The translations under genes were made by a program, and so were the position numbers. Shown here piece after piece: positions 5,539-52,622 of a stretch of DNA of 64,000 nt. The DNA comes from Minisyncoccota bacterium (lineage in GTDB: Bacteria; Patescibacteriota; Minisyncoccia; Phycocordibacterales; Phycocordibacteraceae). How positions within the stretch are numbered: position 1 is the stretch's first letter; the number at the start of each line of letters is the position of its first letter. The notes below the pieces were generated by a model, which did no database searches, was not told the DNA's origin, and was given only the letters and a program-made list of their open reading frames with translations. The DNA lies in the NCBI GenBank assembly GCA_035627655.1, contig DASPLI010000001.1, forward strand, positions 601,605-665,604, read 5' to 3'.

Positions 5539-5814
5539 TTATGCAGCCGGAGATGCGGCCTGCGCCTTAAGGGGACACCAGGATGGTGAATCGCCCTCTT
5601 TGCGCAGGTTATATGGCCGGATCGCGGGCATAACGATGCGATACTCCGACCGCTGCGAAAGGTACTCGGAGTTCACGTCTTGCTCGGGATTCTTCACGTC
5701 CGTGCAAACGATCGCCTTATCGTCGTCATTGAACGAGTCGTGCGGGTCGTCGTCCCGAATCACGCGATGCTTGGGACAATCCATGCAGTTCTCGTAGGTT
5801 TTGACGTTGGTCAC
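5539..5814 (-). CDS. small Cys-containing hypothetical protein
   Basis: An AAGGAGG Shine-Dalgarno (SD) site sits 8 nt upstream of a GTG start (minus-strand 5814). The product contains CMDCPKH...IVCTD. Start choice is uncertain. Confidence 0.3.
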   Translation of the reverse strand: MTNVKTYENCMDCPKHRVIRDDDPHDSFNDDDKAIVCTDVKNPEQDVNSEYLSQRSEYRIVMPAIRPYNLRKEGDSPSWCPLKAQAASPAA

Positions 5815-7063: not shown

Positions 7064-8287
7064 ATGCCTCGATCAATCACCGACATCGTCCCGCCGTCCC
7101 GCCGCCGCTCCATGGAGGGTGCTGAGACCCCGCCGCCGTATGTCCCGCCGTCTGCGCCTCGTCGCGGAAAGGGCGGCTTCCCCTGGAAGTGGGTGATTGC
7201 AACGATTGTCGTTATTGCTGCCTGTGTGGCAGTGCTGTTTGCCTTTGGAGGCACGAAGGTAGAAGCAACCCCAGTTATGAAGAGTGCGACGGTGTCTGGC
7301 GAATTTGCTGCAACGCCGTCTGCAGGCGATCTGCCGTACCAGGTGATTTCCGTTGAGAAGGTTGGTGCGAAGGAGATAAAGGCAGAAGGAACGGAGACTG
7401 CAAATGTCCCGGCCCAGGGCACTGTCACTATCTATAACGCCCAGGATAAGACGCAGGAGCTCATCAAGAACACCCGCTTTGAGACGCCGGAAGGCCTCAT
7501 CTTCCGCATCCATGAACCAGTCAAGATTCCTCCCGGCACCACGGCAAACCCTGGTGAGGTGAAAGCAACCGTTTATGCAGACGCAGGCGGCGAACGCTAC
7601 AACATCGGCCCGTCCACCTTCACGCTTCCCGGCCTTGCAAACTCCGCTACCTTTGACCTGGTATACGCCCGCTCGACCGAGGCAATGTCTGGCGGCTTCA
7701 CGGGCGAGCGTCCGTCTATCCCGCAGACGACCCGCGAGAGCACCTATGCTGCTATGCAGGGCAACCTCCAGGCCGAGCTTGATGCTGACCTCGCGTCTCG
7801 CATTCCTGAAGGCTACGCACTCCTCTCTGGCGCAACCTTCTACACCTACACGCCGCAGCCAGACGGTGCGGGTAAGAGTGACGCGGTAAACCTCCAGCTC
7901 AAGGGAACGGCAAACGCCTACGTCTTCCCGAAGGATGCGCTTGCGCGCGCAATCGCGTTCCGCTCGCTTGGCGTTTATGGCGGCCAGCCGGTCACCGTAC
8001 CTGCAACTGATGGACTGACGCTGACTCCGGTCAACGGCACGCCAGCAGGGGATACGGAGACCTTCGCCTTCACCCTCGCCGGTAGCACCAATATCGTCTG
8101 GGTTGTAGATCCTGTTGAGCTTGCAGGCGCTATTGCCGGCAAGAGCCGGGACGCAGCCCGCACCATCCTTGCTGGCTTTAGCGAGCTGGCAGAGGCAAAG
8201 TTGGTGGTCCGCCCGTTCTGGGCAGGCACCCTTCCTGCAGACCCCGCAAAGATCACGGTCGAGATCATGCAGCCGAAAGCCGAATAG
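7064..8287 (+). CDS. membrane-anchored hypothetical protein (Pro-rich N-terminus, single TM, large extracytoplasmic domain)
   Basis: TM helix WVIATIVVIAACVAVLFAF with coherent composition. The antisense 463-aa ORF was rejected (see noticed_but_rejected). Confidence 0.5.
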   Translation: MPRSITDIVPPSRRRSMEGAETPPPYVPPSAPRRGKGGFPWKWVIATIVVIAACVAVLFAFGGTKVEATPVMKSATVSGEFAATPSAGDLPYQVISVEKVGAKEIKAEGTETANVPAQGTVTIYNAQDKTQELIKNTRFETPEGLIFRIHEPVKIPPGTTANPGEVKATVYADAGGERYNIGPSTFTLPGLANSATFDLVYARSTEAMSGGFTGERPSIPQTTRESTYAAMQGNLQAELDADLASRIPEGYALLSGATFYTYTPQPDGAGKSDAVNLQLKGTANAYVFPKDALARAIAFRSLGVYGGQPVTVPATDGLTLTPVNGTPAGDTETFAFTLAGSTNIVWVVDPVELAGAIAGKSRDAARTILAGFSELAEAKLVVRPFWAGTLPADPAKITVEIMQPKAE

Positions 8288-8332: not shown

Positions 8333-8551
8333 ATGGCAGATGAGCAAGCGGGCACAACGGTAACCGGCACCGTCGAAGAGGTGTTGCCGAATTCTCTGTT
8401 TCGGGTCCGATTGGAATCCGGAGATCTCCTGCTTGCGTATCTGGCTGGGAAAATGCGGCTCCACAGGATCCGCGTCCTAGTCGGGGATTCTGTTGAGCTG
8501 GTGACCGATCCATATGGCGGTCGCGCTCGCATCGTGAGGCGCCTTTCCTAA
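8333..8551 (+). CDS. infA: translation initiation factor IF-1
   Basis: 72 aa, [31 protein letters not shown]... (S1-like OB fold). Confidence 0.9.
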
Positions 8552-8559
8552 TAACAACG

Positions 8560-8676
8560 ATGAAAGTACGAGCATCCATTAAGAAGCAGCAGCCGGGGGA
8601 CATTATCGTCCGCCGTCGTGGACGCTTGTACCGCATCAATAAGCTCAAGCCCCGCCGCAAGGCTCGCCAGGGCTAA
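8560..8676 (+). CDS. rpmJ: 50S ribosomal protein L36
   Basis: Not in the ORF track (<60 aa). ATG at 8560, [41 protein letters not shown] at 8674-8676. Confidence 0.85.
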
Positions 8677-8692
8677 TATTTTTCGTACTGTT

Positions 8693-9073
8693 ATGCGTAT
8701 TGCCGGTGTAACCATTCCTGACAACAAGCAGCTCCTCTACGCGCTGCCACTTATCTATGGCATTGGTCCTGCTCGCGCACGCGACATTCTTGAGAAGGCA
8801 AAGGTGCCGACCACCAAGAAGGGTTCCGAACTCTCTTCTGATGAGGAGCAGACGGTTCGCTCACTTGCCGAGTCCTATTTGATCGAAGGTGAGCTTCGCC
8901 GCGAGATCGCGCAGAACATCAAGCGCCTTAAGGATATTGGTGCAGACCGCGGTGTTCGCCATGCTCGCCGCCTTCCGGTTCGCCACCAGCGCACGAAGAC
9001 CAATTCTCGTACGGTGCGCGGCAACACCCGCAAGACGATGGGTTCTGGTCGCCGTACCCTTGAAAAGACATAG
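8693..9073 (+). CDS. rpsM: 30S ribosomal protein S13
   Basis: MRIAGVTIPDNKQ... starts at the internal ATG at 8693 of ORF 8618..9073. Confidence 0.9.
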   Translation: MRIAGVTIPDNKQLLYALPLIYGIGPARARDILEKAKVPTTKKGSELSSDEEQTVRSLAESYLIEGELRREIAQNIKRLKDIGADRGVRHARRLPVRHQRTKTNSRTVRGNTRKTMGSGRRTLEKT

Positions 9074-9076
9074 CCT

Positions 9077-9511
9077 ATGGGAAAGAAACGAATCATCAAA
9101 AAGAGTGGTAAGGGATTGGATCAGGGCCGCAAGGAGCGCGCGCTTTCCAAGATCGCCAAGCGCAAGCTCGAGAAGGGCGTGCTGCATGTTGAAGCTACCT
9201 TCAACAACACCAAGGTCGTCCTCACGGACGAAAAGGGTAATGCGGTTATGTCCTCTTCTGCAGGCGCCCTTGGTTTCTCTGGTGCTCGCAAGTCAACGCC
9301 GTATGCTGCCGCTAAGGTCGGCGAGCTTCTCGGCGAGAAGGCTATGGCGATCGGCCTCAAGGAAGCATCCGTGGTCATTCGCGGTATCGGTGCTGGCCGC
9401 GAGTCTGCACTCCGCGGTTTTGCCGGCAAGGGCATCGCTATCCGCGCTATCAAGGACGCAACCCCGGTTCCGCACAACGGTCCGCGCCCACCTAAGCCTC
9501 GTCGCGTATAA
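9077..9511 (+). CDS. rpsK: 30S ribosomal protein S11
   Basis: 144 aa with conserved S11 sequence (VLHVEATFNNTKVVLTD...). Confidence 0.9.
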   Translation: MGKKRIIKKSGKGLDQGRKERALSKIAKRKLEKGVLHVEATFNNTKVVLTDEKGNAVMSSSAGALGFSGARKSTPYAAAKVGELLGEKAMAIGLKEASVVIRGIGAGRESALRGFAGKGIAIRAIKDATPVPHNGPRPPKPRRV

Positions 9512-9514
9512 CCT

Positions 9515-10123
9515 ATGAAAACTGTCTCTAAGTACAAGCTCGCAAAGCGCCTTGGTGCCTCGATCTTCGAGAAGACCCAGTCGCAGAAGTTCGCGCTCGC
9601 CGCTGAGCGTTCTGCAAAGAACAAGAAGCGCGGCCGCGGTGCAACCGAATTCGGCAAGCAGCTGCTTGAGAAGCAGAAGGTGCGCGTTACCTATGGCATT
9701 TCTGAGCGCCAGTTCGTCAACTACGTAAAGGAGGCTATGGCCACCAAAGGCCAGAACCCTGCTGAGGTGCTTCATCGTCTCCTCGAGCTTCGTCTGGATA
9801 ATGTTGTGTATCGCATCGGTCTTGCACCGACCCGCCGTGCCGCACGCCAGATGGTGTCGCACGGTCATATCACCGTAAACGGTGTAAAGACCACGATCCC
9901 GTCCCGCCGCATGCGGATCGGGGATCAGTTTGCGGTACGCGACGGCTCGAAGAGCGCAACGCTCTTTGCTACCTTCGCGGACAAGTTCGCGGAGCGTCCG
10001 CTTTCCTCATGGCTTTCCTTTGAGGCAAAGGGCATGAAGGGAACCATCGAGGCGCTGCCACCGGTAGATACCGCTGATGCGGCCGGTGACCTCGTCTCGG
10101 TGCTTTCGTTCTACAGCCGCTAG
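9515..10123 (+). CDS. rpsD: 30S ribosomal protein S4
   Basis: 202 aa with an S4 domain (VVYRIGLAPTRRAARQMVSHGHITVNG). Confidence 0.9.
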   Translation: MKTVSKYKLAKRLGASIFEKTQSQKFALAAERSAKNKKRGRGATEFGKQLLEKQKVRVTYGISERQFVNYVKEAMATKGQNPAEVLHRLLELRLDNVVYRIGLAPTRRAARQMVSHGHITVNGVKTTIPSRRMRIGDQFAVRDGSKSATLFATFADKFAERPLSSWLSFEAKGMKGTIEALPPVDTADAAGDLVSVLSFYSR

Positions 10124-26726: not shown

Positions 26727-27740
26727 GTGAAATTAAGACCATTGCCTGTAGTCAGCGACTTTGTTGTTGACCAGATGCCGGGCCTCCTTGAAGACGAGGA
26801 CCCTCAGTGGTTCAGGCGGCGTGTGACCCACGTCGCCGAAGAGGCTGACTGGTATCTGTCGCACGCCGCGTTTGACGGTCAGGACCGTCGAGTGCTTCTC
26901 TTGGATCTCTTGATGATCCAGGCGGCAATGCACACGAAGAAGCAGACGTGTCCGCGTGAGCTTTCGAGCGCAATCGCTCGCTTGCTCGGCAGAAACGAAG
27001 CGCCGATTATCACGTACGAGCTGCTGGTGCTCGATAATCCTGAAACGGATATGCGCGCATTTACGCGCGGCCCGGTCGGGGAAACGGAAAAGGCATTCTA
27101 TAATGCCCACCGTACTATCGAGCATGCGCTCACACCCGTGATCGCGAGCGTCGACACGCTTCTCTCATGGCTTGAAGGCAGCGCCGACGGCGCCGTCTTG
27201 TCGCCCGACGTTCTGATTGGCATCTTGAAACCGATCTGCGGATCGTTTGAGAGTCCGGCACTCCGGCTGATGCCGGGTGGCAACACGGACACCGGGCATT
27301 TCGCCCAGTTCCGTCCGTACTTCATGAGTATGGAAGTCGGAGGTAAAAAAATCCGCGGACCAAGTGGAGCTTTCTCCGGCCAGATGCCGCTTCTGGAGAT
27401 CCTCTTCAGAGGTGACTCGCCGTCCAAGAACTCGCAGGTCTACGTCGACCTTTGCTCGGAGTATTTCCCAGTACGTCACCGGGAACGACTCCATGAGGCA
27501 ATCATGCGAGCCAAAGACGGACGGATTCTCACGAACTTTGCCGCACGCGACAAGCTTGCAGCACAGTACGTGAACATTCTCGACCGGTTTTTCTACGACT
27601 TCCGACTCAACCACCTGCGTGCGGTCTATTCACAGATCCGCAACCAAGTGCGCGACAAGGAAGAAGGTACCGGCGGGTTTGAAGACATCCGTACATTCCT
27701 CAAAGACCGGCTTGGCGAAGAGCCAGACTGGAATTGGTAG
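26727..27740 (+). CDS. hypothetical protein, possibly indoleamine 2,3-dioxygenase-like (heme dioxygenase fold)
   Basis: GTG start with an AGGAGG SD. GPSGAFSGQ and FRLNHLRAV weakly resemble the IDO GGSAGQSS and FRSYHLQIV motifs. This is a weak call. Confidence 0.35.
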   Translation: MKLRPLPVVSDFVVDQMPGLLEDEDPQWFRRRVTHVAEEADWYLSHAAFDGQDRRVLLLDLLMIQAAMHTKKQTCPRELSSAIARLLGRNEAPIITYELLVLDNPETDMRAFTRGPVGETEKAFYNAHRTIEHALTPVIASVDTLLSWLEGSADGAVLSPDVLIGILKPICGSFESPALRLMPGGNTDTGHFAQFRPYFMSMEVGGKKIRGPSGAFSGQMPLLEILFRGDSPSKNSQVYVDLCSEYFPVRHRERLHEAIMRAKDGRILTNFAARDKLAAQYVNILDRFFYDFRLNHLRAVYSQIRNQVRDKEEGTGGFEDIRTFLKDRLGEEPDWNW

Positions 27741-27752
27741 GAATAAGACTTG

Positions 27753-27785
27753 AAGGGGAGGCTTGGCGCCTCCTCTTCTTCTTTA
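27753..27785 (+). terminator. terminator-like hairpin
   Basis: GGGGAGGC, loop TTGG, then GCCTCCTC followed by TTCTTCTTT. Confidence 0.45.
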
Positions 27786-27789
27786 CTTG

Positions 27790-28080
27790 ACTCCGTCCTC
27801 AGCATTCGCTACCGTACACGCTAGACAGCGTCTTGGACTCCGGTCCCGCCATAAGCGGGATTGGGCCGGAGTCGCCCGCTAGGGCAAGACGGCTTCTGCG
27901 CTAGTGGAAGCCCGGCATCCTCCGTAATCACGGGATAACCGATCGCCAAACGGCTGTCGGTGAAAGGCTTCAGTAGTGAAGCGAAGTAAGGTGGCACCGC
28001 GGAAATCCGCCCTTACGATAGGAGTTTCGACTCGTATCGCAAGGGCGGCTTTGCGTTTATGCAACAGCTCGCACGTTCTT
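27790..28080 (+). ncRNA. highly structured ~290-nt intergenic region (candidate ncRNA or cis-regulatory leader, unclassified)
   Basis: Nested long inverted repeats: GGACTCCGGTCCCGC...GCGGGATTGGGCCGGAGTC; GCTTCA, loop GTAG, then TGAAGC; and a 14-bp stem CCGCCCTTACGATA...TATCGCAAGGGCGG. No ORF. Confidence 0.25.
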
Positions 28081-28097
28081 TCACAAGGAGAATTCCC

Positions 28098-28919
28098 ATG
28101 AACGGACTTGAAGCTTTCAAGTCACAATTCCGCTTCAACCCGGCCATGGCATTTTTGGTCGGTGTCGAGCGTGAATGCTTCACGGCAGACGAACACGGAA
28201 CCATCGTCCCCGCCGCGCCCGCGGTTCTCGAGCACATCCGTGTAAACGGATGGCAGAATCCGAGCGGCCCTATGCACGGGACGCTCGTCGATCCCGGCAA
28301 GCAGGTCGGATACGAGCTGTCTGCATGCCAGGTTGAGACGCGAACCAATCCGGTTCGTCTTGAAAACCTGGAGGCTGAACTCTCGTACCAACAGCAGGAG
28401 CTTGAACGCTCCATGCTCTCCTGCGGGTTTCGCGCCCTCTATGTTGAGGTCGCGCCAGACACCATGCCGCTTGATGTCTATCCGGACCCGAGCGGACGGT
28501 ATGCGACCGTTACCGCTTCCATGCCGCGCGAAGTGCTACTCGCCGCCTGTCAGGTTGCTGGTACGCACATTCACGTTGGCATGCCTGATCACGAGACGGC
28601 GCTTCGCGTCTACAACTCGGTGATCGGCGAGACGGAACGACTGTCGCGACTGGGCGACCACACCAACGGCAAGCGGCTTGCGATCTATCGCGTCGTTGCG
28701 CCGCAGTGTGATCCGAAACCCTACCAAAGCTGGGATGAGTACCACGCCCTCGCGAAAGCGAAGGGGTTCGAGAACGATCCTCGGTCGTGCTGGACTCTGA
28801 TCCGTATCGCCGTGCACGGGACGATTGAATTTCGCATGTTCGGGGTCACCCGATCTGCAAAAGAAATCGTCGGCTGGGCGAACGAATGCCGAGACCTATG
28901 CCTTGAGGCTGCAGGATGA
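28098..28919 (+). CDS. carboxylate-amine ligase, glutamate-cysteine ligase family 2 (GCS2/YbdK-like)
   Basis: AGGAG SD. Contains VGVERECFT, ELSACQVETRTNP, AGTHIHVGMPD and TIEFRMFG, which are GCS2 hallmarks. Confidence 0.65.
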   Translation: MNGLEAFKSQFRFNPAMAFLVGVERECFTADEHGTIVPAAPAVLEHIRVNGWQNPSGPMHGTLVDPGKQVGYELSACQVETRTNPVRLENLEAELSYQQQELERSMLSCGFRALYVEVAPDTMPLDVYPDPSGRYATVTASMPREVLLAACQVAGTHIHVGMPDHETALRVYNSVIGETERLSRLGDHTNGKRLAIYRVVAPQCDPKPYQSWDEYHALAKAKGFENDPRSCWTLIRIAVHGTIEFRMFGVTRSAKEIVGWANECRDLCLEAAG

Positions 28920-28972
28920 AGCACAAGCAGGGAGCCATGCGCTCCCTGCTTTTTCGTATATAGTAACTACCA

Positions 28973-29914
28973 ATGCAAGATCTGGAGCGAATTGTCGAAG
29001 AGCTTGCCGCGAAGACGCACGAAGGCGTTGCGGGCGTTGTGCATCTTGATAGCGGAGTGCCAGGACCTACCGTTGGCATTACGGTAGCGACTCACGGAAA
29101 TGAGCCGGCTGGTCTTGCGGCGGCGCAGTTTCTATTAGCACCTGAAACCAAGCTCCTTAAAGGATCCGTTTATCTGGTATTGAACAACATTGAAGCGGCT
29201 CGTGCGTACCTCAAAGCGACAACGGACGAAGAAAAACGTCGCGCCCGATTTATTGACATCAACCTCAATCGTCTCCCGCAATCGCTTTTTGAGCGAGAAG
29301 GGGAGACGCGATATGAAATGTTGCGTGCACAAGAACTCCTCCTAATCTGGAGCCGGTTTGAAATTGCGCTTGATATCCATAGCACCTCGCAAGACTCGGA
29401 CCCGATGCTCATCGGTCTTGGCGAGCGTCTACCTGCCGAATTGATTGATGGTTTTCCGATACAAAAAGTCATCACCGGCATCGACACAGTCATGCGCGAT
29501 CGTTCTGCGGCAGATTTTTACGGGACATCTGAACGCCCCTGCCGTTCCTTCGGGATTGAATGTGGCGGCCATGAGCACAGTGAGTCCTATGACCGAGCTG
29601 TCGTGTGCGTTCGCTCGTTACTCCAAAACCTCCAGATGCTGGCGGGAACTCCAGAAAGCACGACTATTTCGCATGATGAATACGCGGTGTTCACTTCCAT
29701 TTATTTCCCGAACGAGTCATACGAGCTAACGAAAGTCTTTGAGAACTTTGAACCAATAAAAGCCGGCACTATTCTCGCGCGCGGCAATGGAGCAGATATT
29801 CTCGCACCGGAAGACGGGCACGTACTCTTTGCTCCAAAGACCACAAAGCCAACACACCTAACAGAAGAAGTGCTTTTCCTCACGAAACCGGTTCGACCCT
29901 ACAAAAGCGTCTGA
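28973..29914 (+). CDS. AstE/AspA-family zinc deacylase (succinylglutamate desuccinylase/aspartoacylase-like)
   Basis: VATHGNEPAG (the HGNE zinc-binding motif), 313 aa. Confidence 0.65.
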   Translation: MQDLERIVEELAAKTHEGVAGVVHLDSGVPGPTVGITVATHGNEPAGLAAAQFLLAPETKLLKGSVYLVLNNIEAARAYLKATTDEEKRRARFIDINLNRLPQSLFEREGETRYEMLRAQELLLIWSRFEIALDIHSTSQDSDPMLIGLGERLPAELIDGFPIQKVITGIDTVMRDRSAADFYGTSERPCRSFGIECGGHEHSESYDRAVVCVRSLLQNLQMLAGTPESTTISHDEYAVFTSIYFPNESYELTKVFENFEPIKAGTILARGNGADILAPEDGHVLFAPKTTKPTHLTEEVLFLTKPVRPYKSV

Positions 29915-29980
29915 CCTTGCCATACATACTGAGACGTCCTATAGTCCAACCGGGTGTTCCAAAAGGAAAGGAGGTGCACC

Positions 29981-30934
29981 ATGCTAGCCGCTGTACCGAA
30001 TTGGCTTGCTCCTGCGCTCACGCGCGAGGGACAACGACTGTTCTGGGACCATCAAGCAGAGGATTACGACGAAGCATCGCTCACTAGCAATGCGTCCGAG
30101 CTGGCGCTTGTTCGCGTTCTCTGCGACTTATTCTGCGAAGCAGAGTGGGCGGCGCAGGACTTGATCGCGCTTGGCTGCGGTACCGGATCTCGCGATCCGG
30201 AAACGCTGCTTGCGTGTCTGCAGGTCCACGGAAACTTGCCACTCCATGTGTATCTGAACGATTTGTCAGAGCACATGGTGAAGCGGGCCGTTCGTCGAAC
30301 AACGAGCGATCCGCGATGGGGAGTGTGCAAGGCGCGCGGCTATACGGGGGCTGCAGCAGAGGCACTTCGCCGATGCGTCACCCCTCGTCCGCGGCGCGTC
30401 ATTCTCGGCGTGTATCGGATCGAATCATTTGTACGCGCGTTCCCGCACTACGGGCATCCGCGTTCGGGCTTCGATGAGTATATGGAAAACAGCGACCGTC
30501 TCGGTCCTTACTTCCAGATCAACGATATGCACCTGCAAGGAACGGAGGAGCGGTTTCTGGCCGAAATGCGTTTTGTTGCCGATGGTGACGAACGTCGTTA
30601 CGACCAGATTCGCGATTCGATCCGTAGCCTCCCGACGCTCCCAGGACTCGACGTCACGCGCGTCATGTCGTGGGCGCACCACGGAGACGAAGCGTTCTTT
30701 CTTTCGCACTGGTTTACGGAAGCCGGCATTCGCCGACTGATCGCAACCCAGATGGGGGAAGAGCAGGAAGCGAAGATGTCCTTGGTGCCCTGCGCCAAGT
30801 CATTCGTCATCTGCCTCGACCCTCCGGAAGAGCCACGCGGCATCGTGACCATGCTCAACAATTCGTTTGGCAATATGCTGCCATCGGATTGGAGCGACAC
30901 GCTTGCTCAACTCAAAGAGACCTGCTGTCTCTAA
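29981..30934 (+). CDS. SAM-dependent methyltransferase (class I)
   Basis: A strong GGAAAGGAGGTG SD before the ATG at 29981. LIALGCGTGS matches motif I. Confidence 0.55.
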   Translation: MLAAVPNWLAPALTREGQRLFWDHQAEDYDEASLTSNASELALVRVLCDLFCEAEWAAQDLIALGCGTGSRDPETLLACLQVHGNLPLHVYLNDLSEHMVKRAVRRTTSDPRWGVCKARGYTGAAAEALRRCVTPRPRRVILGVYRIESFVRAFPHYGHPRSGFDEYMENSDRLGPYFQINDMHLQGTEERFLAEMRFVADGDERRYDQIRDSIRSLPTLPGLDVTRVMSWAHHGDEAFFLSHWFTEAGIRRLIATQMGEEQEAKMSLVPCAKSFVICLDPPEEPRGIVTMLNNSFGNMLPSDWSDTLAQLKETCCL

Positions 30935-30940
30935 AATAAC

Positions 30941-30975
30941 GAAGGCCCGTTTGCATCACTGCAGACGGGCCTTTC
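30941..30975. repeat. hairpin element / terminator (family B, copy 1)
   Basis: GAAGGCCCGTTTGCATCACTGCAGACGGGCCTTTC. Near-identical to the 31666-31700 copy. Confidence 0.6.
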
Positions 30976-31033
30976 ATATACTTGCCGAAGCGTTACGGGA
31001 GCGGTAGCCTGCCACGCAGGAAGGAGTCCTTTC

Positions 31034-31663
31034 ATGGATGTATGGGTATTTGATAACGACGGCACGCTCTATGACGACCGCGAGGCGTATGATCAATTCC
31101 TTGTTCTGGTAGGGGAATACCTGCGCAGAAAAGGCTTTGACGTTACCAATTCGCGCGAAGCTATACAGATGGCAAAAGCGCGGACTGGCATGCGCAGCAG
31201 CGCGCTCGCGCTCAGGCAGGTCTACGATCTGCCGTACGACGAACTCGTCAATGAAACGTTTATGCGGATCAAACTTGAAGAGTGCAAATATCTCCGAGCG
31301 GATCCGAAACGCGCAAGCGCGCTTTCAGCGCTCTCAGCGCCGGCAGTCGTGTTTACGAACAATCCTTCGGTGTTTGCCGAACGCGTGCTTTCGGCGGTGA
31401 AGCTGCTTGAGCATTTCTCCGACGTGTTCGGAATCGAACGGACCGATTTCTCGGCAAAGCCAAGCGATCAGGCATTCCGTTCGGTGGAAACTCGGTTTCC
31501 GCTCGGCACGCGCTTTATCCTAGTCGATGACACGCCTGCAAATCTGCATGCGGCTAAGGCTCGAGGATGGCGCACGCTACTGTTCGATCCGCAGGGCAAC
31601 CATGCGGACAACCAGGCGCACTCCGTGCTGCGTTCGTTCTCGGAGCTAGCATCCCACACATAG
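31034..31663 (+). CDS. HAD-superfamily hydrolase
   Basis: VFDNDGTLYDD (the DxDGT motif I), 209 aa. Confidence 0.7.
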   Translation: MDVWVFDNDGTLYDDREAYDQFLVLVGEYLRRKGFDVTNSREAIQMAKARTGMRSSALALRQVYDLPYDELVNETFMRIKLEECKYLRADPKRASALSALSAPAVVFTNNPSVFAERVLSAVKLLEHFSDVFGIERTDFSAKPSDQAFRSVETRFPLGTRFILVDDTPANLHAAKARGWRTLLFDPQGNHADNQAHSVLRSFSELASHT

Positions 31664-31665
31664 AA

Positions 31666-31700
31666 GAAGGCCCGTTTGCATCTCTGCAAACGGGCCTTTC
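31666..31700. repeat. hairpin element / bidirectional terminator (family B, copy 2)
   Basis: GAAGGCCCGTTTGCATCTCTGCAAACGGGCCTTTC. Sits between the convergent HAD gene and trpS. Confidence 0.6.
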
Positions 31701-31702
31701 GC

Positions 31703-32689
31703 TTAGTAGCGCTCGAGTCCCATCTTCACGCGGACGGTGTCAACCGTCTGCTGGAAGATTTCACGCGCCTTGCGGCCGCCTTCGGCAAGCACGTCGCGCA
31801 CGAGTTCGTCTTTGTCGGCAAACTCGCGCCGGCGTTCCTGAAATGGCTTGAGATTCTTCGAGAGATTCTCAGCCATGAGCGACTTGCAGTCGACGCAGGA
31901 AATGTCGGCCGAGCGGCACCGATTAGCGATCGTGCGGTGCGTCGTTTCGCCGGGCGTTACTAGCTCATGCATCGGATAGATGGTGAGGCAGTTTTTCGGC
32001 GTGCCAGGATCGTCTCGACGCACACGACCAGGATCGGTCGGCGCGCGGCGATACGCTTCGCGGATCTCGTCGGGCGTGGCGTTAAGGTCAAAGCCGTTGC
32101 CGTCGGACTTGCCCATCTTCTTGCCGTCAGTGCCGGGAACCCGGATCATCTGCGGCAACATTTTGGGCAGTGTGAAGGTCTCGCCGAAACGCCGATTGAA
32201 TTGGTCGGCAAGATCGCGCGCCAGCTCGACGTTCGGGACCTGGTCTTGGCCGACCGGCACCAGATCCGCTTGCGGGCCGAGAATATCGGCCGCCATAAGA
32301 ACCGGGTAGCTGATGAGACCCAGTGTCACGCGATCCGGATGTTTGCGGACCATATCCTTGAACGTTGGAACTCGCTGCAGGTGTCCAAGTGGTTGCAGCA
32401 TGGACAACAGCAGGCACAGTTCAGCGATCTGCGGCACGCTCGACTGCGTATAGAGAATCGAGCGTTCCGGATCAAGGCCGGCCGCCAGATAATCCTTCAC
32501 GATCTCCGGAATGTTCTTCCGAAGTTCTTCTGGATCATCGAGCGTCGTGAGGGTATGCCAATCGGCCACGAAGAACATGAGCCGATTTTCTGAGTTCTGG
32601 AACTCCACAAAGTGCCGCATGGCACCGAAGTAGTTTCCAGGATGGAGGCGTCCGGTCGCCCGGATGCCTGAGAGCACTGTCAGTGCCAT
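31703..32689 (-). CDS. trpS: tryptophanyl-tRNA synthetase, variant with C-terminal Cys4 (putative Fe-S) motif
   Basis: TrpRS core: GRLHPGNYFG (the HIGH-class TIGN variant) and KMGKS. The C-terminus carries CLTIY...ANRCRSADISCVDCK, i.e. C-x23-C-x6-C-x2-C. Confidence 0.8.
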   Translation of the reverse strand: MALTVLSGIRATGRLHPGNYFGAMRHFVEFQNSENRLMFFVADWHTLTTLDDPEELRKNIPEIVKDYLAAGLDPERSILYTQSSVPQIAELCLLLSMLQPLGHLQRVPTFKDMVRKHPDRVTLGLISYPVLMAADILGPQADLVPVGQDQVPNVELARDLADQFNRRFGETFTLPKMLPQMIRVPGTDGKKMGKSDGNGFDLNATPDEIREAYRRAPTDPGRVRRDDPGTPKNCLTIYPMHELVTPGETTHRTIANRCRSADISCVDCKSLMAENLSKNLKPFQERRREFADKDELVRDVLAEGGRKAREIFQQTVDTVRVKMGLERY

Positions 32690-32782
32690 GGGCGTACTCC
32701 TTTTCTCCTAGGTACAATTCCCGTCCGTACAGTACGTACTTTTTTAGAGGTAGTCAAACCGTTCGAATTATCGGCTATACTA

Positions 32783-34006
32783 GTGCGCATGACTCTTGCA
32801 GATGAACTCAAAGCACGCGGATACGGCAGGGAAGCATCTGCGCCGCTCGAAACCATCCTTAGCGCCAAGCGCGGGGTATACCTTGGTATTGATCCCACGG
32901 CAGATTCCATGCATGTCGGAAACTTGGTGCCGATTATACTTATGCGCCGTCTTGCACAAGCCGGGCACCGGGCGGTCTTTCTGGTCGGCGGCGGCACCGG
33001 TATGATCGGAGACCCACGTGATTCGGGAGAACGCTCGCTTCTTGATAAGCGGACGCTCGAACATAACAAGCGCGCCCTGCGTTCCCAGTTACAGAAAATT
33101 GTCGGGCGGCGAATCGAGCTCGTTGATAACGCCACTTGGCTCTCAAAGGTTGGCCTCCTTGAATTCTTGCGCGACATCGGCAAGCACTTCACAGTCAACG
33201 AGCTCACGAAGCGCGAACTCATCAAGCGCCGGCTTGAGACGCCGAACGAGTCTATTTCCTTTACGGAGTTTTCGTACGCGCTTTTGCAGGGATACGACTT
33301 CCTCACCCTCTATCGTAAGAAGGGAATCGACGTCCAAATCGGCGCGTCTGACCAATGGACCAATATGCTCTCTGGCGTTGAGCTTATTCGCCGCAAGTTT
33401 AGCCAGGAGGCGCATTGTTTTACCTGTCCGCTCGTGACGGACGCTACAGGGAAGAAGTTTGGGAAGTCAGAAGGGAACGCAATCTGGCTTGATGCGCGCA
33501 AGACGTCACCGTATGACCTCTACCAATTCTGGATCCGACTGCCTGATGCAAAGCTCGACGAGTACCTCAAGCTCTATACCTTCCTCTCTCTTGAAGAAAT
33601 CGAGGGTCATATGCAAGAGCATGCAAAGAATCCGGGAGCCCGGCATGCGCAAAAGCTGCTTGCCGCGGAAGTCACACGTATTGTGCATGGAGAAAAGGCG
33701 CTTCGAAGCGCAATCGCGGCAAGCGAGGCTGCGCATGGCGCGACAAAAGATGTTGCCGAGCTCAAGAAGCATCTTGCAGAGGTAGTTACCGTCCGCATCG
33801 GCGATGAGATGAAAGTTGTAGACGCGCTTGTTGCCTCCGGGCTCGCTACTTCCAAGAACGAAGCACGCCGTCTAATTGAAGGGAAGGGAGTGAAGGTAAA
33901 CGATGTGGCGGTACTCGATATTCACGCGAAACTCGACACGTCCGCAGTGGGAGATATGCTTCTTGTGCGAGGAACTAAGAGCTCGGTCGTCTCGATTGTC
34001 AAATAG
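32783..34006 (+). CDS. tyrS: tyrosyl-tRNA synthetase with C-terminal S4 domain
   Basis: HVGNLVPI, KFGKSEGN (KMSKS) and a C-terminal S4-like KVVDALVASGLATSKNEARRLIEGKGVKVN. Confidence 0.9.
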   Translation: MRMTLADELKARGYGREASAPLETILSAKRGVYLGIDPTADSMHVGNLVPIILMRRLAQAGHRAVFLVGGGTGMIGDPRDSGERSLLDKRTLEHNKRALRSQLQKIVGRRIELVDNATWLSKVGLLEFLRDIGKHFTVNELTKRELIKRRLETPNESISFTEFSYALLQGYDFLTLYRKKGIDVQIGASDQWTNMLSGVELIRRKFSQEAHCFTCPLVTDATGKKFGKSEGNAIWLDARKTSPYDLYQFWIRLPDAKLDEYLKLYTFLSLEEIEGHMQEHAKNPGARHAQKLLAAEVTRIVHGEKALRSAIAASEAAHGATKDVAELKKHLAEVVTVRIGDEMKVVDALVASGLATSKNEARRLIEGKGVKVNDVAVLDIHAKLDTSAVGDMLLVRGTKSSVVSIVK

Positions 34007-34033
34007 GGCAAAACGGCTATACTTGGCCGTATT

Positions 34034-34116
34034 GCGTCGGTGGCAGAGTGGTCAATTGCACTTGGCTGTAAACCAAGCGGATTTATCCTACGGAGGTTCG
34101 AATCCTCCCCGGCGCA
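34034..34116 (+). tRNA. tRNA-Tyr (anticodon GTA), type II with long variable arm; CCA not encoded
   Basis: Hand-folded. Acceptor GCGTCGG/CCGGCGC (one G-U pair). D-arm GCAG-AGTGGTCAA-TTGC. Anticodon arm CTTGG-CTGTAAA-CCAAG. Variable arm of 14 nt. T-arm GGAGG-TTCGAAT-CCTCC. Discriminator A. Confidence 0.7.
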
Positions 34117-34119
34117 CAA

Positions 34120-34165
34120 AGAAAAATCGCCGTGGCCAAAGTGAGGCCACGGCGATTTCACAAAG
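34120..34165. terminator. bidirectional terminator hairpin
   Basis: AAAAATCGCCGTGGCC, loop AAAGTGA, then GGCCACGGCGATTT. A perfect 12-bp stem between the tRNA and a convergent minus-strand gene. Confidence 0.6.
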
Positions 34166-34173
34166 CGAGTGTC

Positions 34174-34431
34174 TTAGTTGTCGCACCGGTTGGTGTAGTA
34201 GGCGCCTTCTGGCGTTTCCACGACGCGGCAGAGTGGGATGGCATTTTCCATCGCCATGCGCCGATCTTCTTCGTTCATCACGTCGACGATCGGATCAATG
34301 CCCACGGTGTTGGCCTGAACCGGAGTTGAATCCGGCTCCTGACCATCACGCGCAGACGCGCCCATCGTGGCAACCGCAAAGGCGGCGCCCGCTGCAGCAA
34401 TAACCAGCAGAGCAAATCGACTTTTCGACAT
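34174..34431 (-). CDS. small secreted protein (signal peptide; hypothetical)
   Basis: 85 aa. N-terminus MSKSRFALLVIAAAGAAFAVATMGASA. Confidence 0.4.
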   Translation of the reverse strand: MSKSRFALLVIAAAGAAFAVATMGASARDGQEPDSTPVQANTVGIDPIVDVMNEEDRRMAMENAIPLCRVVETPEGAYYTNRCDN

Positions 34432-34539
34432 TGGGTGTCTTTCTCCTTCGTGTTAGCCCGCGTTACCGCAGTCTAAGGTGACCATACTATATATATTGAT
34501 ATATGTCAATTGCTGCCAACGGCTGGTATACTGTCGCGC

Positions 34540-35478
34540 ATGAAGAAGCAAACGCTGCTCACGGGACTCCAGTCTTCGGGCAATCTCCACATCGGGAACT
34601 ACTTCGGCGCGCTCAAGCCATTCGTCGATATTTACGAGCAGTACGACAGCTACCTGATGGTGGCGGACTATCACGCTCTGACCTCACTTCGAGACCCACA
34701 CGTGCTTCGCACCAGTATTGCAAACGCAGTGCGCGACTATCTTGCGGTTGGCGTTGACCCGACGAAGGCAGTGATCTTCAAGCAGTCTGAGGTGCCGGCA
34801 CACTCTGAGCTTGCCTGGGTATTTGATTGTTTGGTGACCGTGCCATTCCTCATGCAGGCACATGCATATAAGGACAAGGTCGCCAAAGGCCTTGAGGCGA
34901 ACGCCGGCCTCTTTACGTATCCCATGCTCATGGCTGCAGATATTCTCCTCTACAACACGGATGTCGTACCAGTTGGAGAAGACCAACGGCAGCATATTGA
35001 GTACGCCCGGGAAGCGGCAGCGAAATTCAATAATGCGTACGGCGAGCTCTTTAAGGAGCCGAAAGAAATGATTCTCTCGGGTGTCGGCGTGGTTCCAGGG
35101 ACCGACGGCAAGAAGATGTCGAAGAGCTATGGCAACACCATTCCGCTGTTTGGTACCAAGGATGAAATCGCGAAAGCGGTCATGGGTATCGTGACCGACT
35201 CCGGCACGGGACGCCCTGAAAACGTTTACGCTATCCATAAGCTGCTTCGAAGTGAGGAGGATTTGGACACGCTGTACGCGGAAAAGGCCGGGAAGTATAA
35301 GGATCTTAAGGAAGCGTTAATCGAGGATTTGGAGATAATGATCGCTCCGCTTCGGGAAAAGCGCGAGAGTATTACCGACGCTATGGTACGCGACGTACTT
35401 GACGCAGGCGGCGAAAAAGCTCGAGCGGTTTCCGAAGCGAAAATGCAAGCTGTGCGAACGGCAGTCGGAGTTGCCTAG
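34540..35478 (+). CDS. trpS: tryptophanyl-tRNA synthetase (canonical paralog)
   Basis: GNLHIGNYFG and canonical KMSKSYGN with no Cys cluster. Starts at the ATG at 34540. A TATACT -10 sits 7 nt upstream, so the mRNA may be leaderless. Confidence 0.85.
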   Translation: MKKQTLLTGLQSSGNLHIGNYFGALKPFVDIYEQYDSYLMVADYHALTSLRDPHVLRTSIANAVRDYLAVGVDPTKAVIFKQSEVPAHSELAWVFDCLVTVPFLMQAHAYKDKVAKGLEANAGLFTYPMLMAADILLYNTDVVPVGEDQRQHIEYAREAAAKFNNAYGELFKEPKEMILSGVGVVPGTDGKKMSKSYGNTIPLFGTKDEIAKAVMGIVTDSGTGRPENVYAIHKLLRSEEDLDTLYAEKAGKYKDLKEALIEDLEIMIAPLREKRESITDAMVRDVLDAGGEKARAVSEAKMQAVRTAVGVA

Positions 35479-49104: not shown

Positions 49105-49341
49105 ATGACTAAGCTTCTTCTTGGAGCGCTTGCCGTCGCAGCGGCTACAGCGCTACCGACGTCTGCATTTGCGCAGGTCTTCGCCTACGTAAATACGACG
49201 GGTGAGGTGATGACTATGGACGCTAACTCGGCAAACGAGGCGCTTCTAACCGCACCGAACCTCCATGTGCGTAGTGGTGTGATGCTTGTCGACGATGCAG
49301 CAGATAATGCGGTCGTTGGCGACGACGTCCCAGGTACGTAA
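49105..49341 (+). CDS. small secreted protein (weak)
   Basis: 78 aa with a signal-peptide-like N-terminus MTKLLLGALAVAAATALPTSAFA. Confidence 0.3.
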   Translation: MTKLLLGALAVAAATALPTSAFAQVFAYVNTTGEVMTMDANSANEALLTAPNLHVRSGVMLVDDAADNAVVGDDVPGT

Positions 49342-49459
49342 TCCTCCGTCCCGTCAGTCGTCTGAACTCCCGAGAACCTCTTCTCGGGAGTTCATTCGTT
49401 CCTTCATGAAGGATCCAGCCCGAGTCGCTCATAATTACTTTTTCCTCTACACTTTCTCT

Positions 49460-50263
49460 ATGACTACTTTTCGCACAGGAGCACTCGCGCTTCTTATCGG
49501 ACTTATTATGGCGATGCCTGGTATGGCATTTGCTGCAGATGGATCGTTTGATGACTCGTCGCTTTCCGGCGTAACTCGCAAGGTAACGCTCACGGGCGAG
49601 ACCGATGCAACAAAAGTTCGCATTGTGGTTGAAAACGAAGACGGCAAGAAGGTGTACACGAGCCGCACTATCAAAGTCAGGGACGGGGAGTGGCGCGCCC
49701 GCATTTCCAAGAACCTCAAACCTGGAGACTACGAAGTAACTCTCTACGACGACAGCGGCAAGAAACGCGTTGAGCTTGATACGGCAACGCTGACCGTCAC
49801 GTCAAAGAACGGCTCGTCTAAAAGCTCGTCCAAGGGCGGCGAGCTCGCCGTTTCCGGCGTACCGCTTCTTATGGGTGGAACCGCAAACGCAAACACCTCA
49901 GTTCCGGTAGCCTACATAAAAGTGACAAACAAAGGGAAGTCGGATACATCCATTTCTGGCTTCAATCTCGTTGAAACTGGATCGGCGCCAGATAGTGTCG
50001 TGACTGGATTTAGCACAAGCGACGATAAGGGCGGCTCTCGATCTACGGTCTCCGCAACGTTCAACAAAAAGGGTCAGGCGTTTGTTCCGCTTGCCGCAAC
50101 ACTTGCGCCAGGTCAGTTCCGAATCTACACGATCAAAGCAGTGATCGGCAGCAACACCTCATTCGGCTCGCAGCTTCGTATCAATGTCGCTGGCATTGAA
50201 ACGGGTGCAAAGACAACCGCCGCATTCCCAATCATCGGTACGACCTTTACGCTTGGTATATAA
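49460..50263 (+). CDS. exported protein (signal peptide; hypothetical)
   Basis: Internal ATG at 49460 gives the signal peptide MTTFRTGALALLIGLIMAMPGMAFA. The rest is a beta-rich Ser/Thr/Gly domain. Followed by the hairpin GCCGCCTTCACTGTGGAAGGCGGGC. Confidence 0.5.
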   Translation: MTTFRTGALALLIGLIMAMPGMAFAADGSFDDSSLSGVTRKVTLTGETDATKVRIVVENEDGKKVYTSRTIKVRDGEWRARISKNLKPGDYEVTLYDDSGKKRVELDTATLTVTSKNGSSKSSSKGGELAVSGVPLLMGGTANANTSVPVAYIKVTNKGKSDTSISGFNLVETGSAPDSVVTGFSTSDDKGGSRSTVSATFNKKGQAFVPLAATLAPGQFRIYTIKAVIGSNTSFGSQLRINVAGIETGAKTTAAFPIIGTTFTLGI

Positions 50264-51021: not shown

Positions 51022-51840
51022 TCAGAGATTCTTGAATTGGTCTTTAATGTCCTCCTGCTCCCCTGCCCCTCCAGGCAAATCGAGATTGACGGTCTCGTTG
51101 GTTGTTTGTTCGTAGAAATCTTTAAGATCCCGAAGCGCATCAATCGTACTGTCTGAAAGTTTCGAAACATTATCCTTGTTTCGTATCCAAGCGGCAGCAT
51201 CTTGCCAGAGTTGTCGGAGCTCGGGCGGCAAGTGCGTCTGTGCGCGATCTGCTGAGTCCGCAAGCGCATAGCGCATAAAATAGGAGAAACCTTCTTTTCG
51301 GCGCTGCTGCATACGTGGATCATTCTCTTTTTTCTCGTCAGAGAAAAGTTCGTCTTCTCGATTGATGAGTTCTTCAACGAAAGCCTGTACTGCTTTGTCG
51401 TACGTCTCACGCTCACTCTCCGACATGTGTTCAATGCCAGCGGCTCTTCCGAGGAAACTCCTGTACTGGTCGAACACAGCGGACTTCACCGACGTGCGAA
51501 GTCGCTCCTCACCCATGGCGGCATTACCTGCTCCATCCAAGTGCTTTGCCGTTGAGATGTAACTCATGGCGCGGTCAACGGTTTTCGTAAAATACGGATC
51601 TTGTTCGTACTGCTCTGCCCGATGCCATGACACATCCTGGTTTGGCGCAAGCTTCGCAAGATGCAGCGCTGCCTGCTTGCGGAGTTCCGGATACCGGAGC
51701 AACACAGCGTCAAAAATATAAAACTGCAGCTCGGGCATGCCCTGCGACATTTGAAACGACCAGAATATGATGTTGGCAAACTTTTTCTCGACGTCCTCCT
51801 GCCCTTCCCTGGTTTCTGTTTTCGGAGGAAATTCAGACAT
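51022..51840 (-). CDS. hypothetical cytoplasmic helical protein
   Basis: The ATG (minus 51840) lies 2 nt after the LOG stop, which suggests translational coupling. The track's in-frame GTG is at 51849. No TM helices. Confidence 0.5.
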   Translation of the reverse strand: MSEFPPKTETREGQEDVEKKFANIIFWSFQMSQGMPELQFYIFDAVLLRYPELRKQAALHLAKLAPNQDVSWHRAEQYEQDPYFTKTVDRAMSYISTAKHLDGAGNAAMGEERLRTSVKSAVFDQYRSFLGRAAGIEHMSESERETYDKAVQAFVEELINREDELFSDEKKENDPRMQQRRKEGFSYFMRYALADSADRAQTHLPPELRQLWQDAAAWIRNKDNVSKLSDSTIDALRDLKDFYEQTTNETVNLDLPGGAGEQEDIKDQFKNL

Positions 51841-51842
51841 AC

Positions 51843-52622
51843 CTAGCACTTCGTATTGGCAACAATGTAGTCGAATGCTTCGTCGACTGAATCAACGATG
51901 TGGAAGATCTCCATGTCTTCTGGATCAATCGCGCTGTACTTCTCGAGAAGCGTCTTGCGGAAGCCTTCGATAGCTGGCGTCCAGAATTCTTTTCCATAGA
52001 GAACGACCGGGATGCGCTTGATCTTCTGTGTCTGGATCAGTGTGACGATTTCGAAGAATTCGTCGAGCGTACCAAAACCACCGGGGAAATAGATATAGAC
52101 TTCGGATGCAAACGTGAGCATCACCTTTCGTACGAAAAAGTGGCTGAAGTAAATTTCTTCAGTTACGTACTTATTCATGGCCTGGCTCTCGTTGAGGTGG
52201 ATGTTGAGACCAACCGAAGCACCGCCCGCCTCATATGCGCCTTTGTTGGCAGCCTCCATGATGCCTGCCGATCCGCCGGTAATAACTGCAAACCCGCGCT
52301 TAGCGAGCCGTCCGGCAAGTTCCGTTGCCGACTGATAGTAGTGGTGTTCAAAGCCAACGCGGTTTGAGCCAAAGAAGGTGGCAGCGAGCGCATATTTCTG
52401 AATAAGCTCGAAGCCTTCCACAAACTCGGACATGATCTTAAAGACGCGCCATGGCTCAAGCTCGCGCGGCTTGCAGACAAGCGGTTCAGGAATAGTCGGC
52501 ACCTTCCCCTTGCCTTCCTCAATATGACGCGAGAGTTTCGCGCCCATCATGTGATGATCGGCGGGATCCGTCACCGGATGCGACAACGGAAGGTTGCTTG
52601 GGCTTAGGATTTCGTCTGCCAT
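51843..52622 (-). CDS. LOG-family protein (TIGR00730; cytokinin riboside 5'-monophosphate phosphoribohydrolase-like)
   Basis: GGSAGIMEA and PGGFGTLDEFFE signature motifs. Confidence 0.8.
   Translation of the reverse strand: MADEILSPSNLPLSHPVTDPADHHMMGAKLSRHIEEGKGKVPTIPEPLVCKPRELEPWRVFKIMSEFVEGFELIQKYALAATFFGSNRVGFEHHYYQSATELAGRLAKRGFAVITGGSAGIMEAANKGAYEAGGASVGLNIHLNESQAMNKYVTEEIYFSHFFVRKVMLTFASEVYIYFPGGFGTLDEFFEIVTLIQTQKIKRIPVVLYGKEFWTPAIEGFRKTLLEKYSAIDPEDMEIFHIVDSVDEAFDYIVANTKC

Follow-up and report, generated by a model that had tools for sequence, protein, structure and literature searches.

Two tryptophanyl-tRNA synthetases in a Paceibacteria genome, one of a putative Fe-S type and linked to an enzyme block with an IDO-like protein

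The window considered here, that is, the whole stretch of 64 kb that was analysed from contig DASPLI010000001.1, belongs to a member of the Paceibacteria (candidate phyla radiation, CPR) with a small genome and two intact genes for tryptophanyl-tRNA synthetase (TrpRS). One of them, copy A, is a member of the Thermotoga maritima-type Fe-S TrpRS subfamily, with a putative [4Fe-4S] cluster, and lies in a block of enzyme genes, one of which encodes a predicted haem protein related to indoleamine 2,3-dioxygenase (IDO). In the window lineage the other gene, copy B, is the constant copy, and copy A is present or absent together with the enzyme block. Moreover, the association of A-type TrpRS with tryptophan-related enzymes recurs in other genomes, where the linkage is conserved. 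The two copies flank the genes for TyrRS and tRNA-Tyr, and the features of the TrpRS region are as follows.

31703..32689, minus strand: TrpRS copy A, 328 amino acids (Pfam tRNA-synt_1b, E 1.9e-61)
32633..32644, minus strand: HPGN of copy A, residues 16-19, ATP-binding signature
32105..32119, minus strand: KMGKS of copy A, residues 191-195, ATP-binding signature
31886..31990, minus strand: C234-x23-C258-x6-C265-x2-C268 of copy A, in the anticodon-binding domain
32783..34006, plus strand: TyrRS (TIGR00234, 333 bits; Pfam tRNA-synt_1b and S4 domain)
34034..34117, plus strand: tRNA-Tyr (GTA) (ARAGORN; Rfam RF00005, 60.6 bits)
34540..35478, plus strand: TrpRS copy B, 312 amino acids (Pfam tRNA-synt_1b, E 5.5e-56)

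Both TrpRS open reading frames, which an earlier note on this DNA had placed on either side of TyrRS and tRNA-Tyr, match the NCBIfam trpS family TIGR00233 over their full length and well above its cut-off of 176.75 bits, copy A with 271.2 bits and copy B with 271.4 bits. TyrRS is transcribed divergently from copy A, with a spacer of 93 bp between them.

Copy A contains five cysteines in all, four of which form the C-x23-C-x6-C-x2-C pattern. Its best match in the PDB is T. maritima TrpRS (TM0492; 2G36; E 2.9e-81), which is its nearest structural relative at ~43% identity. In a HMMER alignment the four cysteines share columns with Cys236, Cys259, Cys266 and Cys269 of 2G36, the first spacer being aligned with a gap of one residue; the numbering of the cluster ligands and the definition of the motif were taken from PMC2954223. 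The RVRR-DPG segment just N-terminal of the first motif cysteine is also conserved between the two proteins. The kinship of the four-Cys tail with the T. maritima motif, which the earlier note had suspected from the spacing, is borne out by this alignment at all four ligand positions. A chance origin of the pattern was ruled out by the homologous alignment and by shuffling of the copy A protein, since C-x(21-24)-C-x6-C-x2-C arose in only 2 of 200,000 shuffles. By homology, we infer that copy A carries a [4Fe-4S] cluster on its anticodon-binding domain, beside the anticodon. The motif and its site in this domain are the same as in TM0492, from which copy A differs at three points: its first spacer is x23 (x22 in TM0492), and KMGKS and HPGN take the place of KMSKS and HIGH. 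In addition, TM0492 comes from a thermophile, whereas copy A comes from a CPR metagenome genome of the mesophile type and lies in a conserved enzyme neighbourhood, of which none is described for TM0492.

The figures for the A-type family given here refer to the 120 closest homologues of copy A. KMGKS is present in 120 of the 120, and so is the Cys motif, with x23 in 119 and x22 in one; therefore, both are traits of the subfamily rather than quirks of copy A, and KMGKS was rejected as a mark of altered function in this enzyme. The named members are Paceibacteria (Giovannonibacteria, Kaiserbacteria, Liptonbacteria, and 'Paceibacterota'), and the homologues are 59-65% identical to copy A, except for one at 86%. 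The signature, which the earlier note called non-canonical, is not an oddity of copy A, and the unusualness of KMGKS together with the Cys tail was overstated. Han et al. reported in 2010 that the motif C-x(21-24)-C-x6-C-x2-C occurs in organisms with one or several TrpRS genes, that only one copy bears it where there are several, and that it is found in anaerobes and for the most part in thermophiles or other extremophiles (PMC2954223). The core pattern of a TrpRS pair with the motif in one copy is therefore already in the literature; for the gene context of copy A, no description was found there.

Two other divergent TrpRS types invite comparison with copy A. The archaeal-type 'TrpRS-A' of CPR (Mukai et al., PMC5370408) was considered and rejected, being a different protein family. 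TrpRS II of Deinococcus radiodurans (1YI8/2A4M) is likewise a second, divergent TrpRS alongside a standard copy, and it matches copy A (E ~1.5e-50) better than copy B (E ~4e-41), but it lacks the Fe-S motif. The partner of D. radiodurans TrpRS II is a nitric-oxide synthase, a gene for which is absent here.

Copy B is a compact bacterial TrpRS with HIGN, KMSKS (DNA 35113..35127), and a single, unrelated cysteine, in keeping with its earlier description as the canonical copy that lacks a Cys cluster. Its best PDB match is the C. jejuni enzyme (3M5W, E 8.7e-74), and at least 120 homologue clusters are 73-82% identical to it. Over their full length the two copies share 40% identity; copy B lacks the insert that bears the first motif cysteine and has non-Cys residues at the other three positions. 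When the 120 best homologues of each copy were aligned, 77 positions were at least 90% conserved and identical in the two families. These include H16/G18/N19, H45, M132/D135, G147/D149/Q150, and K191/M192/K194/S195, and they cover HxGN, KMxKS, the ADxH histidine, the MAADIL tryptophan pocket, and GxDQ. At only 11 highly conserved positions does copy A deviate from the consensus of its family, and all of these changes but one are conservative; the non-conservative one, F17P, lies in HxGN and turns the HFGN of the family into HPGN. The ratio of non-synonymous to synonymous substitution rates (dN/dS) is ~0.05-0.06 for copy A (window versus the related loci L003 and L008) and 0.047 for copy B (window versus L004), values that are rough in view of synonymous sites near saturation. 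Copy A is clearly under strong purifying selection in genomes that also hold copy B. The catalytic positions are kept in both copies, and therefore neither is a pseudo-paralogue, a possibility that the earlier note had raised against its own reading and that is ruled out by these positions and by the dN/dS of copy A of ~0.05. To judge from the conserved residues, both enzymes most likely are catalytically competent and charge tRNA-Trp.

In a neighbour-joining tree, copy A of the window groups with those of L003 and L008; this clade is the sister group of the remaining 120 A-types, and T. maritima falls outside both. The copies of the window clade have a mean identity of 62% to other A-types, compared with a background of 70% (sd 4.5) among those, which indicates that their branch is longer than usual. 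Copy A is intact, in both catalytic and Cys residues, in all of the genomes seen in the copy B clade (window, L003, L006, L007, and L008). The two copies were found on one contig in two organisms, the one of the window and that of L006, where copies A (68%) and B (78%) lie within 5 kb as they do in the window.

The status of copy A in its lineage is apparent from a close relative, L004, the copy B and histidine kinase of which are 82% and 85% identical to those of the window. L004 and the window are collinear between DnaJ and a point past GluRS, except for the gap between the histidine kinase and TyrRS. In blastn comparison, window 23406-26547 corresponds to L004 4158-7294 and window 32774-33600 to L004 8192-9018. 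The segment in between, which constitutes the block, contains the following features in the window.

26548..32773: 6.2-kb block of X1, GCS2, AstE, X4, HAD, and TrpRS-A (blastn synteny with L004)
26727..27740, plus strand: X1, predicted IDO/PrnB/TDO-superfamily haem protein, 337 amino acids (family profile, AlphaFold2 (AF2) and Foldseek)
28059..28919, plus strand: GCS2-type carboxylate-amine ligase, divergent (YbdK/EgtA family; Pfam GCS2, E 4.3e-9)
28973..29914, plus strand: AstE/aspartoacylase-type zinc amidohydrolase (Pfam AstE_AspA_cat, E 4.8e-10; HGNE and DIHS motifs)
29954..30934, plus strand: X4, conserved protein (LGCGTGSRDP and YLNDLS motifs)
31034..31663, plus strand: HAD-IA hydrolase, pyrimidine-5'-nucleotidase-like (Pfam Hydrolase, E 9.1e-12; DNDGT (DxDGT) motif)

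At the site of the block, a segment of 0.9 kb with a single GNAT gene is found in L004, which is devoid there of copy A and the whole block. Copy B, on the other hand, follows TyrRS and tRNA-Tyr and precedes AspRS-ScpAB in L004 and L006 just as in the window, as part of an array of aminoacyl-tRNA synthetase (aaRS) and cell division genes (TyrRS, tRNA-Tyr, TrpRS-B, AspRS, ScpA, ScpB, MraY, and FtsW). Because the syntenic L004 has copy B and neither copy A nor the block, copy A is a dispensable, island-borne copy in the window lineage. To this extent the earlier view of copy A as the extra enzyme holds, but the enzyme is not an exotic one, as the A-type is widespread in Paceibacteria. The base composition of the block shows no departure in GC content (0.55-0.575, compared with 0.54-0.56 in the flanks) and lends no support to a recent foreign origin. 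The GNAT of L004 (Acetyltransf_3; 7343..7981, minus strand) is 47% identical to a GNAT of L010 (11233..11862, plus strand) that lies directly downstream of the IDO-like gene of that locus, a likeness which suggests that the gap between the histidine kinase and TyrRS may hold alternative versions of one variable module.

The linkage was followed over 11 independent A-type loci, five of which (L017-L021) were looked up by name from the list of copy A homologues; scans of GTDB representatives and of metagenomes yielded one locus and five loci, respectively. Tryptophan- or chorismate-type neighbours are found at 11 of the 11. The gene order X1, GCS2, AstE, X4, and convergent TrpRS-A is shared by the window, L006/L012, L007, and L008/L009/L011, across which X1 is only 37-43% and X4 40-57% identical; the HAD hydrolase is also found in L006. 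L003, the A copy of which is 86% identical to that of the window, has TyrRS, TrpRS-A, two AstE-type genes, and a fragment of X1 at the contig end. In L018 (Kaiserbacteria), GCS2, AstE, X4, and a fusion of a chorismate mutase (CM_2) domain with a class I methyltransferase dependent on S-adenosylmethionine (SAM) are near TrpRS-A, and in L019, GCS2, AstE, and X4 are. The neighbours of TrpRS-A in L010 are X1, an AstE-type gene, a chorismate-mutase-like/methyltransferase fusion, a TrpD-like gene, and BtpA. The fusion gene is located 16-26 bp downstream of TrpRS-A on the same strand in L017, L020 (Liptonbacteria), and L021 (Giovannonibacteria), and L017 and L021 also have TrpD-like and BtpA genes, with a TrpG-like amidotransferase in L021. 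The link between TrpRS-A and the ligase and deacylase genes is conserved across several genomes, and the tie to tryptophan metabolism at which the earlier note had hinted holds up.

Some further observations were made at these loci. The fusion genes, at L017 11022..12155, L020 7576..8703, L021 8818..9993, L018 8734..9867, and L010 3832..4977, adjoin TrpRS-A in L018 and L010 as well, and they are often accompanied by TrpD-like, BtpA, and TrpG-like genes. The X4 homologue of L019 (8640..9589, minus strand) is split into parts of 228 and 98 amino acids by a frameshift or an assembly error. More aaRS genes are located near the TrpRS pair in relatives (L006 15661..17121 and 20682..21113; L007 10912..14818), namely those for LeuRS and for a second synthetase of class IIb and, within the variable segment, one that is GluRS-like.

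Of the neighbours of copy A, X1 itself has no match in Pfam or NCBIfam. Among 5.8 billion proteins just four close homologues of it were found, and 405 relatives were retrieved when 1.84 billion cluster representatives were searched with a profile. In the PDB, a family profile of 47 sequences finds human IDO1 (full-length match, E 3.2e-14), TDO (E 2.9e-8), and PrnB (E 0.02), and among the 47 relatives, 23 match the Pfam family IDO and 8 match TDO, with a best E of ~1e-6. Since X1 falls below the Pfam thresholds and only distant relatives match, it should be regarded as a member of the superfamily rather than of a curated family. An AF2 model (pLDDT 78, pTM 0.79) was compared with the PDB by Foldseek, and the top 22 matches are all IDO1, IDO2, PrnB, or SO4414 (E down to 1.4e-6, TM 0.53-0.63); the significant matches are confined to this IDO-type fold. 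Compared with IDO1, PrnB, and SO4414, which form the two-domain branch of the haem-dependent aromatic oxygenases, the fold match is full length (TM ~0.6) at an identity of 15-19%.

The invariant residues of X1 are H296, R196, H128, and GTGG at 314-317. H296 aligns with the histidine of IDO1 'LRSYHLQIV', R196 with the arginine of 'VLRIYLSG', and GTGG with GTGG; H128 occupies the distal-His position of TDO, which is Ser167 in IDO1. The histidine aligned with H296 is the proximal haem ligand of IDO1, and R231 of IDO1, the counterpart of R196, together with the GTGG loop holds the carboxylate and amine of free tryptophan. The profile matches, the predicted fold, and these residues all point to X1 being a genuine IDO/PrnB-fold haem protein, as the earlier note had guessed in calling it IDO-like. 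Relatives of X1 occur in other settings, too: in L013 (7421..8515 and 8517..9560) the gene of a more distant IDO-like protein is separated by 2 bp from an aldo-keto reductase gene downstream of it, and a TrpF-like (PRAI) gene is close by; P0313, a protein of the X1 family with 690 amino acids, matches the Pfam family of aldo-keto reductases as well and may be a fusion of the two; and in L015 a distant X1 relative adjoins an AstE-type gene.

The remaining genes of the block had been described as a ligase/deacylase/methyltransferase/HAD cluster, of which the ligase, the deacylase, and the HAD hydrolase are real and the methyltransferase is weakly supported. The GCS2 ligase, the start of which is placed at residue 14 by gene callers, matches the NCBIfam carboxylate-amine ligase with E 4e-12, far under the family cut-off, and the HAD hydrolase matches TIGR01993 with E 8.9e-18, also under the cut-off. 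X4 has no match in NCBIfam; two of five homologues match Pfam Methyltransf_33 weakly (E 0.0014), and the match to EgtD in the PDB weakens from E 0.046 with a profile of five sequences to E 0.95 with six. A single-sequence AF2 model of X4 (pLDDT 36) was too poor for fold assignment, and X4 is possibly an EgtD-like SAM methyltransferase. The set invites comparison with the ergothioneine genes egtA-E of the mycobacterial type, in that the GCS2-family ligase resembles the EgtA family, the amidohydrolase stands in the logical place of EgtC, and an O2-using metalloenzyme would stand in that of EgtB. However, X4 is only faintly and not significantly EgtD-like, a homologue of EgtB or EgtE is absent, and the likeness is one of logic only, the predicted ligand of X1 being tryptophan-like rather than histidine.

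The rest of the window consists of ordinary housekeeping genes of a small genome, including M16 peptidases, AlaRS, S4, RpoA, DnaK, DnaJ, TyrRS, AspRS, ScpA/B, MraY, FtsW, GluRS, CysRS, and DnaB, and its aaRS genes are AlaRS, TyrRS, the two TrpRS, AspRS, GluRS, and CysRS. The GC content is even (0.51-0.59), and the TrpRS region is not an outlier. The tRNA-Tyr, which is 97.6% identical to the L004 copy, is the sole tRNA and the sole Rfam match in the window. Upstream of the start of copy A, AAGGAG is located at 8 nt. The ATG of copy B (34540) has no Shine-Dalgarno sequence, and the end of a -10-like box, TATACT, is 7 nt before it (34503..34542); from these two features, the mRNA may be leaderless. 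An open reading frame of 85 amino acids (34174..34431, minus strand) between tRNA-Tyr and TrpRS-B is preceded by a strong ribosome-binding site, its N-terminus resembles a signal peptide, and L004 has one of 95 amino acids at the matching position. Five sizeable open reading frames (5894..6997, 7064..8287, 8889..9518, 49286..50263, and 51022..51849) have no Pfam match at E <= 1e-4.

For the coexistence of the two genes, the explanation that we favour, at about an even chance of being right, is that both copies are active TrpRS, copy B being the constitutive housekeeping enzyme and copy A an isoenzyme kept through a tie to a tryptophan module. The intactness of the genes, the homology of copy A to Fe-S TrpRS, its conserved linkage, the all-or-none occurrence of the block, and the purifying selection on copy A are observed; it is inferred that the cluster is bound, that both enzymes are active, and in what way copy A is tied to the module. 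The module would comprise the IDO-like haem enzyme, which would use O2 and bind free tryptophan, the ATP-dependent carboxylate-amine ligase, the zinc amidohydrolase, X4, and the HAD hydrolase, and it may consume or derivatise tryptophan. Copy A could then secure the charging of tRNA-Trp while the module runs, under conditions such as a depleted tryptophan pool, a pool contaminated with tryptophan analogues, or a redox state sensed via the cluster, and it might do so by tolerance to tryptophan analogues, by a different affinity, or by a redox response through the cluster.

Several results weigh against this explanation. No T-box, riboswitch or other Rfam element except the tRNA was found in the 64-kb window, and an RNA element linking the TrpRS genes was accordingly rejected; likewise, no tRNA-Trp lies beside copy A or B in the window and 12 related loci. 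The block is not a single operon, given that copy A is convergent with the other genes and that separate hairpins are present: X1 and GCS2 each have their own terminator-like hairpin, and a further, strong one is situated 5 bases past the stop of copy A and 4 bases past the HAD gene on the other strand.

31667..31698, minus strand: terminator-like hairpin with a 14 bp stem and 8 G-C pairs (consensus scan)

X1 is associated with TrpRS-A at only 6 of the 11 loci, and the longer branch of the A copies in the window clade could also mean relaxed constraint. TrpRS-A of L010 (5113..6114) has a single in-frame TGA at 5611-5613, which replaces the Arg codon of FNRRFGETF in relatives (CGA to TGA), while the reading frame of the remaining gene is undisturbed and both KMGKS and the Cys motif are preserved; a nonsense mutation, a misassembly, and recoding are all candidate causes. 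Finally, if A-type genomes outside the clade are devoid of copy B, copy A would simply be a housekeeping enzyme of ancestral origin, and the genes beside it may be there through inherited synteny.

The last point leads to the main rival to a coupling between copy A and the module, namely that a displacement is under way in which copy A, the ancestral housekeeping TrpRS of Paceibacteria, has become redundant beside the compact copy B, which the clade acquired or evolved within its aaRS array, and is being lost along with its neighbours, and its adjacency to the enzymes would carry no mechanistic meaning. It is possible, though distinctly less probable. It would account for the wide distribution of the A-type in Paceibacteria, and for the better conservation of copy A (64% identity) than of GluRS (49%) across the deep split between the window and L019, as is expected of a sole essential aaRS. 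The loss of the whole block in L004, the longer branch of the window-clade copies, the in-frame stop in L010, and the occurrence of the motif in organisms with a single TrpRS (Han et al., PMC2954223) all agree with it. However, copy A is intact in every genome of the copy B clade seen, and its dN/dS is as low as that of copy B, which is unexpected for a redundant gene. Furthermore, its neighbours vary by lineage and yet are of the tryptophan or chorismate type at all of the loci, which exceeds what frozen synteny would give.

A protective function for copy A and an oxygen-related one have also to be considered. In the former, the block would make a tryptophan-derived antimetabolite against ordinary TrpRS including copy B, and copy A would be the insensitive copy, as Ind0 is for indolmycin. 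The chuangxinmycin cluster was found through a second trpRS beside tryptophan-modifying enzymes (PMC5925218), and the locus of copy A matches this search signature: the second copy of a target enzyme is inside the block, and the linkage is kept in several genomes. The predicted binding of a tryptophan-like amino acid by X1, the fact that the block comes and goes as one piece, and the purifying selection that acts on copy A beside copy B are also what self-resistance would lead one to expect. We nevertheless consider it quite unlikely, for the block contains no transporter, regulator or recognisable scaffold-forming enzyme, the neighbouring enzymes are dissimilar to those of the Ind0 and chuangxinmycin trpRS, and they differ by lineage (GCS2/AstE/X4 or CM-MTase/TrpD-like/BtpA). 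In addition, the A-type is widespread rather than cluster-specific and is probably the main TrpRS in many Paceibacteria, unlike a dedicated immunity gene. Secondary metabolism is rare in CPR genomes, which counts in the same direction. The other possibility is a division of labour by O2 or redox state that is independent of the neighbours, copy A serving in anoxic conditions and the Cys-less copy B when the cluster is oxidised. This is very doubtful. It agrees with the absence from copy B of the whole Cys-bearing insert, and with the report of the motif in anaerobes and in only one copy where there are several TrpRS (Han et al., PMC2954223), but it leaves the travel of copy A with the enzyme block unexplained, and X1, if it is an oxygenase, needs O2 and would fit poorly with copy A as an anoxic enzyme. 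It would also have to assume an O2-labile or regulatory cluster.

For the role of the [4Fe-4S] cluster of TrpRS, seen in the structure of 2010, Han et al. had only guesses to offer, namely stability or recognition of a modified anticodon (PMC2954223). A stronger form of the module coupling, in which the Fe-S TrpRS of Paceibacteria is a dedicated partner, for supply, immunity or sensing, of an undescribed tryptophan-derivatising CPR pathway with ergothioneine-like logic, is unlikely at present. The pathway would comprise the IDO-like haem oxygenase, the EgtA-family ligase, the zinc amidohydrolase, and the EgtD-like protein, and if this proved true, it would be the first physiological role for the cluster. 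If, on the contrary, the linkage is inherited synteny only, the finding shrinks to a further example of a known pattern. In a large uncultured group, Fe-S TrpRS is consistently located beside enzymes that bind, or resemble handlers of, tryptophan or chorismate, and two natural isoenzymes from one cell together with candidate partner enzymes offer a comparative and biochemical handle on the role of the cluster. The search also defines ~400 sequence clusters of predicted bacterial IDO-like haem proteins, most members of which miss Pfam, and it reveals a small conserved enzyme set in organisms that are usually considered to be nearly without amino-acid metabolism.

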